Of a stretch of 64,000 bases of DNA, positions 19,996-21,964 are shown in pieces. Origin of the DNA: Escherichia phage WPEC5; sequence record PV654397.1; one strand, 5' to 3'. The first letter of the stretch is position 1. Each line of letters begins with the position of its first letter. A program made the translations under genes and the position numbers. A model generated the notes under the pieces. It made no database searches. It was not told where the DNA came from and saw nothing but the letters and a program-made list of their open reading frames with translations.

Positions 19996-20305
19996 CGTTT
20001 TAATCTCTCTTAATGTGTAGCGGGAAGTGTTCCCGCTCTCGATGTAAAACATTATACGCTTTTATCAGTACGGTGCAAGTACTTTCTACAAATACTTTTA
20101 AAATAGTTTTCTTTCTATATAGGAGTACTATTATTCAGTACTGAATCAATCCACCAAATCATCCCTATACCCCGTAAAACGGCCTCAGACGCATTCTAAC
20201 GCATTAATACACCTAAGCTATACATTTGCACCACTCCCAACAATCCAGGGCGTTACGGGCCGTTTAAACGCGTTAAATTATTTTCAATTATTTTGTTTTT
20301 AGGTA

Positions 20306-20333
20306 TTGACTTGATCCTGAAAAAGCGTATAAT
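20306..20333 (+). promoter_or_regulatory. plus-strand sigma70-like promoter in gene-free region
   Basis: TTGACT-N16-TATAAT; no downstream ORF. Confidence 0.55.
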
Positions 20334-20646
20334 TACTACATAGACGCGAGAAAGCGGAAACCCCAGAGGGTGCGGAATTACGCCCAAAATTCAAGATATA
20401 AAAAAAGGATACACTCCCGCACCCTAGCAGGTAAACGCACTTTCTCAGTACTGAAATATAGTACCATAGTCCGGCCCAGGATAGCAAGCAAATTAATTAA
20501 AACTTTTTTGCTTCCAGGGTATTGCTTTATTTTTTCAGTACTGTATAATAGTTCCATCAAGTCGAGAAAGACTCAAGCCCACCGGGTGCATAGTTACGCC
20601 CAAAATTCAGTACTGAAAAAATTTTTAAAAATATCCGTCCAGGTCG

Positions 20647-20675
20647 TTGACATTGCCCCCAGTTTATAAGATAAT
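20647..20675 (+). promoter_or_regulatory. plus-strand sigma70-like promoter in gene-free region
   Basis: TTGACA-N17-GATAAT; followed by leader-type hairpin GCGGGGAAACTATCCCCACGC but no ORF. Confidence 0.5.
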
Positions 20676-21964
20676 GATTCCAGATTCAGAAAAATCTAAC
20701 TCCAGATACTGCGGGGAAACTATCCCCACGCGGTAGGGGAACTATTGGAAAAACAAAATAAAATTTTGATTTAGCCGTCTATACTTCCAGACGTGTAACC
20801 ATCTAGCCGTTTAGCCATCCAGCCATCCAGAAATCTAGCCGTTTAGCCGTCTAGATGGATAGCCATCTTTACTTCCAGACTTCTGGAGGGCTAGACATAT
20901 CTACGCCCAAAATCCATCCAGGGTAACTACACCCAAAATCCGTCAGTACTATACCATAGATCTATCTTTTGAAAGGGAGTATTCAGTACTGCCATCATAG
21001 CCCTCACTATGTTACCCTAGGAGGATGAAGACTATCATGTAGTACTGAATACTGTTAGAGGGAATCCACCAGCTTGTGCTGGTGGCATAATGCTTTAGAT
21101 TAAAATCAGTACTGATACCATTCTGTTAATATCAGTACTGTTATTACGATTTTCATATGAGGTTCAAAAAGATGTACCACCACAGGAGGAACTATCTTTT
21201 CTGTACTGTCTCACGACAGGAGGTAGAGTAAATGAATTGTTCGCAGCAACTCATCACCCTATGTAGAACATTATACAGTACTGAATCATAAAGTCAATAA
21301 CTTTCTTTCATCTTTCAGTACTGATATTCTTGAGAACTACCCGACTACAAACATCATTATATCCCACAAATCATAAACGTCCCAACGTAAATTTCAACTT
21401 TCGAAGATCCAACTTTTATTTCATAGGTACTCCAAAATTTTTAGGATCGAGATTTAGGATGGAGTACTAACCAACTTTTTGCTGGAGCCTCAAGGGGTAA
21501 TTGAATTTTACCCCGAAGGGTAAAGGGGTAATTGAAATTAAGGTGAAAGTAATAATTCAGTACTAATCATTGCGTGATTACTTTTGATTACATTTGATGT
21601 AATTTGCAAAATGGAAAAGGAGCTTGGAAACTACAAAGTACGGCAGACTTCCTCTGCCTACTTAGTGGCATATCGACACCTTCAGTACTGAATACTTTTG
21701 GGGCAGTACTGAATCCTTCCCTAGCATTCTTGAGTAATCTTGTCTATAATAATCAGTACTGAATCATATATAATCATTCTGTGATTCTACGGTGCTCATA
21801 TAAATGTTTATATATGATTACTTATGACTACATATGATTACGGGGTTTAGCCTGGGGAGAATCCTAGTGATCGCATTTGTCCAGGCTGAATTTTAACAAT
21901 TCTTCTAATTGTTAAAGCCTGTCCAATGCTTTCCCTGCGGAGCTTCCCCTGTCTATATGTTGAA

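Follow-up and report, generated by a model that had tools for sequence, protein, structure and literature searches.

The window analysed here is a 64,000-nucleotide stretch of DNA from Escherichia phage WPEC5 (PV654397.1), which corresponds to the left end of an Asteriusvirus genome (a PBECO4/121Q/G17-like jumbo coliphage). Within it, a 1.9-kb region (positions 20053–21964) is bordered by two minus-strand open reading frames (ORFs), 19633–20052 and 21965–22171, that match PHROG families (E = 4e-58 and 6e-19, respectively). An initial annotation, made from the letters alone, had described this region as gene-free, and the description holds: the seven ORFs of 35–99 aa inside it had no PHROGs match, the five of these that were compared with Pfam gave no match, and zero coding sequences (CDSs) are annotated there in the curated records G17, PBECO4, 121Q and Ecwhy_1. 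Its further statement that no ORF in the region is preceded by a Shine-Dalgarno (SD) sequence has to be corrected, since there is an SD-preceded mini-ORF of 19 codons at 21233–21292 (AGGAGG, 8 nt and ATG, in all 21218–21292; MNCSQQLITLCRTLYSTES); further AGGAGG sites lie at ca. 21019 and ca. 21184 (two). Searches for tRNA and tmRNA found nothing, and Rfam 15 produced no match at gathering scores in the whole window and none at E ≤ 1 in 18000–22500. The comparisons described below suggest that the region is probably the untranslated inner end of a direct terminal repeat (DTR) of ca. 21.66 kb and that it acts in cis on the ends of the DNA.

A megablast search with 20053–21964 matched 41 phage records, 34 of them with a coverage of at least 80 %. 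Most are classed as Asteriusvirus, with genomes of 350–385 kb, and the identity to the region in 36 Asteriusvirus records is 83–98 %. Position 1 of the window aligns with position 1 of G17, and the window thus starts at the physical end of the genome. In G17, nucleotides 350150–370817 are a 100 % copy of nucleotides 1–20668, forming a DTR whose end is the base aligned with window position 21662. When the termini of the seven other repeat-bearing records were aligned to the window, all eight (G17, fEgEco12, WPEC3, BF17, CRJP21, Ec-M-J, E9.1 and ELP-22) started or ended at the base aligned with 21662. The termini of fEgEco12 come from PhageTerm and are backed by restriction digests (PMC13070987), and the DTR of Sharanji is 20,668 bp by PhageTerm (PMC11895373). 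The boundaries of Muenster, fENko-Kae01 (hereafter Kae01; PhageTerm) and CBB (read depth and pulsed-field gel electrophoresis) fall at a homologous ^TAGYGG site, where the caret marks the cut, with RaK2 serving as a proxy for reading that of Muenster. The shared terminus of the eight records places the inner boundary of the ca. 21.66-kb DTR inside the gene-free region, with 1610 bp of it within the repeat and 302 bp beyond. Judged from these relatives, the repeat stops at 21662^21663, where the virion DNA also has its right-hand physical end.

The repeat-internal non-coding DNA is more conserved than the two neighbouring genes: identity to nine Asteriusvirus relatives is 0.935 for 20053–20300 and 0.95–0.998 for segments of 20301–21662, while the two CDSs on its left reach 0.80 and 0.93. 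A coverage of at least 80 % is found in 34 of the 41 records for the gene-free region, but in only 3 for the 25 kb around it. Gene-free DNA of ca. 1.3–1.9 kb, apart from tiny, doubtful annotated ORFs, also adjoins the boundary in Muenster, Kae01, BF, GAP32, CBB and RaK2. The same contrast in conservation has been noted for the untranslated repeat regions of T5 (Davison, bioRxiv 10.1101/866236).

The following features were found on the two sides of the boundary and on the approach to it:

21066–21140, unstranded: GC-rich hairpin CCACCAGC-TTGT-GCTGGTGG and an inverted pair of CAGTACTG motifs 18 bp apart, from repeat and motif scans.
21426–21468, unstranded: conserved 43-nt box GGTACTCCAAAATTTTTAGGATCGAGATTTAGGATGGAGTACT, 194 nt before the cut.
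21494–21536, unstranded: two copies of GGGGTAATTGAA, at 21494 and 21525, the first forming the hairpin GGGGTAA/TTACCCC.
21575–21603, unstranded: three TGATTAC-type repeats with 10-bp spacing, 60–90 nt before the cut.
21642–21674, unstranded: terminus site, with hairpin GGCAGA-CTTCC-TCTGCC, GACTTC-N11 and the cut at 21662/21663, then TAGTGGCATATC.
21683–21761, unstranded: three CAGTACTGAAT sites, just outside the repeat.
21814–21841, unstranded: second set of TGATTAC-type repeats with 10-bp spacing, ca. 150–180 nt past the cut.

At the right boundary, the sequence is ...GGCAGACTTCCTCTGCCTACT^TAGTGGCATATC... in the window, ...GACTTTATAAACGGACT^TAGTGGCATATC... in RaK2, ...GACTTCAGGAAC(G/A)GATA^TAG(C/T)GGAAGGGG... 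in CBB, GAP32 and Kaldavass, and ...CAGAGAAGATA^TAGCGGAAGGGGG... in Kae01. The cut site is conserved as GACTTY-N11^TAGYGG: the cut falls exactly 11 nt past GACTTY, and is followed by TAGYGG, in five phages (the window, RaK2, GAP32, CBB and Kaldavass). GACTTC-N11 also closes the records of BF and XbC2, and Kae01 shares ^TAGCGG without GACTTY; a hairpin abuts the end both in the window and in Kae01. The 43-nt box is 93 % identical to Kae01, and is recognisable near the ends of CBB, BF and XbC2; phages of the Kae01 group have an average nucleotide identity (ANI) of only ca. 29 % with an Asteriusvirus. Past the cut, (C/A)AGTACTGAA occurs at a distance of 12–21 nt in G17, Kae01, CBB, GAP32 and Kaldavass, and in a degenerate form in RaK2. 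TGATTAC itself is situated at 21575, 21585, 21815 and 21835, and the hairpin within 21066–21140 is annotated in G17 as a minus-strand terminator.

At the other end of the repeat, the left junction reads ...(T/C/G)GCTA^AG in G17, Muenster, Kae01 and CBB. The bottom strand of the right boundary reads CC(A/G)CTA^, so that the same short motif is found just outside the repeat at its two ends, on opposite strands. This mirrored geometry is what duplication of a repeat by staggered nicks and fill-in requires, a scheme that is classical for T7-type phages. Applied here by analogy with T7, it would operate as follows. A phage nuclease, most likely the terminase, would recognise terminus-proximal signals in the replicated concatemer, putatively the hairpin with GACTTC-N11, the 43-nt box and the phased TGATTAC repeats that flank the cut. 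This enzyme would nick the bottom strand after ...RCTA at the right boundary and the top strand after ...GCTA at the left boundary, and the two nicks would leave 5′ single-stranded overhangs across the whole repeat; strand-displacement synthesis would then fill these overhangs, providing every packaged genome with a full copy of the repeat. For ends at window positions 1 and 21662, the 5′ end of the top strand is expected to be AGGTTACC... and that of the bottom strand AGTAGGCAGAGG....

We also considered GAAGTC, next to the left junction of G17, as an inverted partner of GACTTC, and rejected it, since Muenster, Kae01 and CBB do not share it at their left junctions. The left-terminal 200 bp (window 1–200) are non-coding and conserved. 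CATAGTCCAA occurs near the left end of G17 and Kae01, with the variant CATAGTGCAA in CBB. Among the motifs common to the left-terminal 300 bp and the region only CCATAGTC stood out; the window contains it just three times, at positions 35, 190 and 20464, and it was too weak to be of use.

The left part of the region contains promoters, hairpins and repeats, which are listed here together with a leftward promoter situated closer to the boundary:

20051–20078, minus strand: promoter TTGCAC-16-TATAAT of the last gene of the DTR (19633–20052), a copy of the promoter and stem-loop cassette.
20306–20333, plus strand: promoter P1, TTGACT-16-TATAAT, 11/12 matches.
20343–20453, unstranded: imperfect palindrome of 111 bp in which two H leaders face each other, between P1 and the facing promoter.
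20458–20487, minus strand: facing promoter TTGCTA-18-TACTAT, directed leftward through the palindrome in the direction of the genes of the DTR.
20522–20549, plus strand: promoter P2, TTGCTT-16-TATAAT, with a weak −35 and CAGTACTG filling the spacer beside the −10.
20561–20615, plus strand: half module behind P2, with one H leader (GTC-GAGAAA-GAC, CCCACCGGG) and no facing partner, ending in TTCAGTACTGAA.
20647–20675, plus strand: promoter P3, TTGACA-17-GATAAT, 11/12 matches, with homologues visible in Kae01 and BF.
20713–20753, plus strand: P3 leader, with hairpin GGGGAAACTATCCCC and then box CGCGGTAGGGGAACTATTGGAAAAA (SD-like with TTG), folding z-score −3.0.
20770–20901, unstranded: 8-bp array of ca. 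17 units, consensus AGCCRTCT (TCTAGCCR in the other register), from a period scan.
20901–20942, plus strand: two more copies of YACNCCCAAAATYC (repeat family D5), a motif that also makes up the loop in both the palindrome and the half module.
21270–21297, minus strand: promoter TTGACT-16-TATAAT with CAGTACTG in the spacer, 11/12 matches.

The three rightward promoters P1, P2 and P3 had been proposed in the initial annotation and are indeed present. A loose promoter scan did not rise above chance, with 27 promoters found and 23.6 expected; support for the promoters comes from their conserved position in other genera. A promoter stands at the position of P1, before the same leader, in Muenster, RaK2, Kae01, BF, fHe-Yen9-04, GAP32, CBB, Kaldavass and XbC2, and a facing TTGACA-18-TACTAT is found at the same place in six of these phages (GAP32, CBB, Kaldavass, XbC2, BF and fHe-Yen9-04). 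The −35 of P2 reads TTGACT in Muenster.

Splitting the palindromes revealed that the repeating unit is a promoter plus a leader of ca. 35 nt, the H leader. Its hairpin 1 has a stem of 3–4 bp and a GAGAAA-type loop, and its hairpin 2 is CCC-N3-4-GGG, followed by TGCGGA; on the plus strand of the palindrome, these are CGC-GAGAAA-GCG at 20345–20356 and CCC-CAGA-GGG at 20361–20370, followed by TGCGGA. The palindrome has folding z-scores of −4.2 (plus strand) and −4.9 (minus strand), and 20326–20377 is 94 % identical to Kae01 over 52 nt. The stem of hairpin 1 occurs as CGC/GCG, CGA/TCG, CCA/TGG, GAG/CTC, GCA/TGC, GAC/GTC, GTC/GAC and GGC/GCC, and its covariation score was 0.286, compared with 0.157 in shuffled alignments (reached in 0 of 500) and a maximum of 0.132 in slid controls, the sequences being related to each other and the structure having been derived from them. 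All four pairs of hairpin 1 change on both sides, in 29 such cells against 16.6 in the shuffles (0 of 500); only 59 % of the hairpin-1 cells in the alignment are paired, and hairpin 2 hardly varies. This covariation may point to a hairpin formed in a single strand, which would most simply be an RNA leader. The long stem of the palindrome shows a single C-G to G-C swap. Its outer part, GAGAAAG/CTTTCTC, was initially modelled as the key pairing and was replaced by the local hairpin-1 model, since GAP32 and CBB keep the local hairpins only. A strand preference was likewise discarded: the two copies in the window favour the minus strand (−43 vs. −33 kcal/mol), and no preference was consistent across 14 elements. 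The loops of the corresponding elements in GAP32, CBB, Kaldavass and XbC2 contain CCAAAATTCA.

Two units of ca. 60 bp that had been described as tandem are instead 216 bp apart, each directly downstream of a promoter; the repeats named in that description (the array at 20770–20901, GGGGTAATTGAA, TGATTAC and ACGCCCAAAAT) are all present, ACGCCCAAAAT occurring at 20380, 20596 and 20903. The sequence of the half module belongs to repeat families D5 and D10. Related modules exist elsewhere in the repeat. A second full convergent module extends over 18424–18596, with TTGACA-17-CATAAT at 18424–18452 on the plus strand, TTGACT-17-CATAAT at 18596–18568 on the minus strand (11 and 10 of 12 matches, respectively) and a core at 18480–18536, and half modules are located at 16014–16110 and ca. 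3630–3720. Small genes of the repeat are preceded by another cassette, composed of AAGTACTTGCAA-N16-TATAAT, a GGGGAA...TTCCCC hairpin and an SD sequence (19558–19644, 20018–20104 and 21236–21276); the first two of these intervals constitute repeat family D1 and are 70 % identical.

The hairpin and SD-like box behind P3 look like an inverted copy of the gene cassettes D1 and D3. The suggestion that a decayed gene start lies behind the third promoter is reasonable in that Serratia phage BF and Klebsiella phage Kae01 have ATG where the window has TTG, the ORFs there being of only 5–14 codons, although the box is conserved, with 20728–20850 being 78 % identical to BF. A scan of IMG/VR with CCCYAGAGGGTGCGGA was set aside, because 19 of its 21 loci were chance matches in unrelated contigs, and fHe-Yen9-04 and Serratia BF were the only true homologues.

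The length of the 8-bp array in Asteriusviruses is 151, 159, 167 or 175 bp, that is, it changes in steps of 8 bp. The same array was found in relatives from Eneladusvirus and Mimasvirus and in T5-like Demerecviridae, including the Aeromonas phages AhSzq-1 and AhSzw-1 and the Vibrio phages pVp-1 and Pontus, among others. The AhSzq-1 copy is situated in untranslated DNA, at a distance of a few kb from A1 and A2, and in Pontus the array adjoins T5-type GTGCAAATCCGACA repeats and TTATCCACA boxes. It also occurs in the T7-like coliphages phiKT and PGT2; the latter (MG201401.1) has a 260-bp DTR (1–260 = 42427–42686) with the array at 42–105, inside the repeat. Since three phage families that are unrelated to each other carry the array at the fixed ends of their repeats, it is most likely tied to the biology of DNA ends. 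The initial annotation had called the repeats of the region iteron-like, which does not agree with the spacing of the array.

A dense cluster of CAGTACTG, a palindrome, had also been reported, and 12 of the 61 copies of the window are indeed within the 1.9 kb, with 1.13 copies expected in the whole window. The hexamer palindrome AGTACT is found 273 times in the window, against 21.6 predicted by base composition, and is spread over coding as well as non-coding DNA; its density falls from ca. 13 per 2 kb up to 26 kb to ca. 5 per 2 kb beyond. In 13 of the 61 copies, CAGTACTG occupies a promoter spacer in the fixed register TTGNNN-N7-9-CAGTACTG-(N)-YATAAT, P2 sharing its register with 12 other promoters of the window. 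These spacer copies look like an operator or promoter element, which would cover only part of the excess.

Repeats resembling Fur boxes, AAATGAGAATCATTATC, which agree with GATAATGATAATCATTATC at 15–16 of 19 positions, occupy the homologous boundary regions in Klebsiella relatives as well as Repeat Region 3 in T5, at L012 (Muenster) 1938–3597, L042 (RaK2) 1720–3096, L013 (Kae01) 1759–3350 and L016 (T5) 4075–4134. Some copies are in the palindrome loop of relatives, and the scan detected none in 20053–21964. It did reveal a separate repeat family at 49307–51419, with five copies of TATAATCATAATTAATATC and the related TATA(A/T)TCAAAATCAAT(A/G)TC. The DnaA box (TTWTNCACA) has 0 matches in 20053–21964 and five in the whole window, and a scan with the IHF consensus gave one IHF-like match in the region, which was uninformative. 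To the right of the region, 21965–26565 holds ca. 25 head-to-tail paralogous minus-strand genes of ca. 60 aa, the first of them being phrog_11711; the GC skew of this block is +0.1 to +0.3, opposite to that of the minus-strand genes of the repeat, and gene orientation switches only at ca. 26.6 kb.

The left two thirds of the region (20300–20900) carry predicted host-type early promoters and a short, putative two-hairpin RNA leader. The promoters would fire both ways, to the left into the small early genes of the repeat and to the right into non-coding DNA toward the boundary. We take this part to be a set of putative early transcription and leader-RNA cassettes together with a putative protein-binding array associated with DNA ends; the roles of promoters, leader and array are those of candidates deduced from sequence. 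Transcription is likely by analogy with the related jumbo phage PA5oct, whose 39-kb DTR of small genes is transcribed early and yields two abundant non-coding RNAs (ncRNAs) from ORF-free parts, each making up 1–5 % of the phage reads (PMC7318152). The ncRNAs of PA5oct map at 8.3 and 22 kb, not at the boundary, and are documented by RNA-seq.

The region shares several traits with the concatemer junction of T7-type phages: exact direct terminal repeats with sequence-specific ends, short-period arrays at or in the repeat (including the same 8-bp array in PGT2), a hairpin beside the cut, promoters reading toward the junction and, by deduction, staggered nicks with fill-in. In T7 itself, repeat arrays are found next to the terminal repeat. 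The differences are that the repeat is ca. 130 times longer than that of T7 (21.7 kb vs. 160 bp), that the promoters are of the host sigma-70 type rather than of the phage-polymerase type, that the array is 760–890 bp from the cut instead of adjoining it, and that the end signals are here putative. T4-type phages contain PeSL cassettes, composed of a promoter plus a stem-loop, and the cassettes D1 and D3 resemble them as repeated early sigma-70 promoters with a stem-loop before small genes; here, in contrast, the palindrome arises from two opposed cassettes, and several cassettes lack a downstream gene. The first hairpin of the H leader is also reminiscent of the boxB-type leader hairpins of lambda nut sites, with its 3–4-bp stem and purine-rich 6-nt GAGAAA loop near the transcription start, the likeness being one of shape only.

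The closest counterpart in layout is Repeat Region 3 of T5, an untranslated stretch of 1.2 kb with repeats and palindromes. Most of it falls within the left terminal repeat, which it overruns by 270 bp; its conservation exceeds that of the ORFs of the repeat, and it has been proposed as the site of the injection stop signal (Davison, bioRxiv 10.1101/866236). Like it, the region studied here is large, untranslated and full of direct and inverted repeats and palindromes, is better conserved than the ORFs of the repeat, and is situated at the inner end of a long repeat full of small early genes, with an overrun of ca. 0.3 kb. Two repeats are shared with the T5 group, although in different phages: the 8-bp array with T5-like Aeromonas and Vibrio phages only, not with T5, and AAATGAGAATCATTATC between T5 and the Klebsiella relatives only. 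In contrast to Repeat Region 3, there are no DnaA boxes, IRD′-spacer-IRC′ unit or GTGCAAATCCGACA repeats in the region, and a blastn comparison with T5 5500–11500 (word size 9, E ≤ 1e-3) gave no match. The 10 largest minus-strand ORFs of the repeat showed no PHROG match to A1 or A2, and no ORF of the repeat, the longest having 213 aa, comes near A1 in size. Conversely, convergent promoter-palindrome modules and CAGTACTG have not been described for T5, and the phage itself is a distant relative of T4 with a myovirus tail and a genome of ca. 350 kb. The region can be regarded as a variant of the T5-type untranslated repeat region and may work like Repeat Region 3; membership fails, given the lack of DnaA boxes, of similarity to T5 and of an A1/A2 match among the ten largest repeat proteins.

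The initial annotation had offered a packaging signal, a nest of ncRNAs or a replication origin as candidate functions. The first comes closest, inasmuch as a conserved cut site lies inside the region and its part in forming the right genome end is well supported, even though the terminal repeat itself had not been recognised. The second is plausible as far as transcription goes, considering the promoter positions kept across genera, the signs of covariation in the leader hairpin and the ncRNAs of the PA5oct DTR. It would have the region produce trans-acting hairpin RNAs of ca. 100 nt from both strands very early in infection, with targets in host or phage (for example as decoys, antisense regulators or protein sponges), its position at the boundary being incidental; we regard this as possible but rather doubtful. 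Promoters are kept on both sides of the palindrome in nine relatives examined, the predicted folds are strong (z-scores of −4.2 to −5.5) and copies of the module exist elsewhere in the repeat; on the other hand, no Rfam family appears even at E = 1, an intrinsic terminator is missing behind the hairpins, the relatives show no consistent folding advantage of either strand, as would be the case for a DNA palindrome, and the array, the 43-nt box and the conserved cut site are left unexplained. Another reading is a T5-style delivery in two steps. The 21.7-kb repeat would enter first as first-step-transfer DNA and express its ca. 60 small host-takeover genes, and transfer would stall at the gene-free region, near the array, which would be a common DNA-end or entry signal; host RNA polymerase, starting from the three tandem rightward promoters P1–P3, would then help to pull in the remaining ca. 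330 kb, in the same way as the T7 promoters A1–A3 help to pull in DNA. The T5-like layout, with 1610 bp inside the repeat and 302 bp of overrun, agrees with this, as do the array that in T5-like Aeromonas and Vibrio phages stands beside DnaA boxes and GTGCAAATCCGACA and near A1/A2, the AAATGAGAATCATTATC repeats common to Klebsiella relatives and T5 Repeat Region 3, the orientation of all repeat genes to the left with P1–P3 directed toward DNA still outside the cell, and the early transcription of the PA5oct repeat (PMC7318152). Such a stop and restart station nevertheless seems unlikely, because the lack of DnaA boxes, of T5 similarity and of A1/A2 homologues among the ten largest repeat proteins counts against it too, rightward transcripts would run antisense through ca. 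4.6 kb of minus-strand genes, and the searchable literature reports no stepwise transfer for any Rak2-like phage.

An origin primed by transcripts is improbable, since the region lacks the expected sequence signs. The rightward RNA would act as primer or R-loop and the facing promoter would provide an antisense regulator, a geometry that resembles RNA II and RNA I of ColE1, and the convergent promoters do enclose a strongly structured segment, with ca. 125 bp between them (20333 to 20458). Yet neither DnaA boxes nor an AT-rich unwinding element are present, the GC content of 0.39–0.41 at 20000–21000 being above that of the neighbouring DNA; the repeats are short, with periods of 8 or 10 bp unlike the spacing of iterons, and the same module occurs at several other sites of the repeat. 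The skew analysis called for in the initial annotation, carried out over the 64-kb window, did place the cumulative GC-skew minimum at 21–22 kb, with a change of sign at ca. 21.5 kb even though minus-strand genes lie on both sides, but this is not diagnostic of an origin because the repeat boundary and the beginning of the compositionally odd paralogue block fall at the same place. That the region consists of decayed promoter and stem-loop cassettes and small genes, tolerated and functionless, is very improbable: P3 with its hairpin and SD-like box does have the appearance of an inverted gene cassette without a gene, half modules exist and the array varies freely in 8-bp steps, whereas the region is more conserved than the adjacent genes, several boxes are 78–94 % identical to phages whose whole-genome ANI to an Asteriusvirus is only 23–30 %, and the layout is kept in every lineage examined. 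Several points also weigh against a cis-acting end of the terminal repeat, the reading that we favour. The window contains only the left copy of the repeat, so that the boundary in this genome is deduced from its relatives, and the ends of some records were perhaps set by rotating the assembly to match an earlier genome. The polarity of the nicks is deduced from a motif of 3–5 nt, and the sequence just inside the right cut varies between genera (TACT^ vs. GATA^). The 43-nt box, the TGATTAC repeats, the array and the promoters are only candidate signals for cutting or packaging, and the promoter-leader modules, which are not specific to the boundary given their copies at 18424–18596, 16014–16110 and ca. 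3630–3720, may be unrelated to the formation of ends.

Repeats of ca. 20 kb in Asteriusvirus-like phages are already published, and for the repeats of Rak2-like jumbo phages nothing has been described beyond their length; we found no earlier description of the non-coding region, the cut-site motif, the promoter-leader palindromes or the array shared across families. How very long exact terminal repeats are made and used is poorly understood outside T7 and T5, and the region gives concrete cis elements with which to approach this matter: a conserved cut site with its mirrored motif, terminus-proximal boxes, the array and the promoter-leader module. With GACTTY-N11^TAGYGG as a guide to the right boundary and GCTA^AG as a guide to the left one, the many Rak2-like records that lack defined ends could be oriented and completed with their repeats, and the region provides a direct means of examining whether entry of a 350-kb genome into the cell is stepwise.

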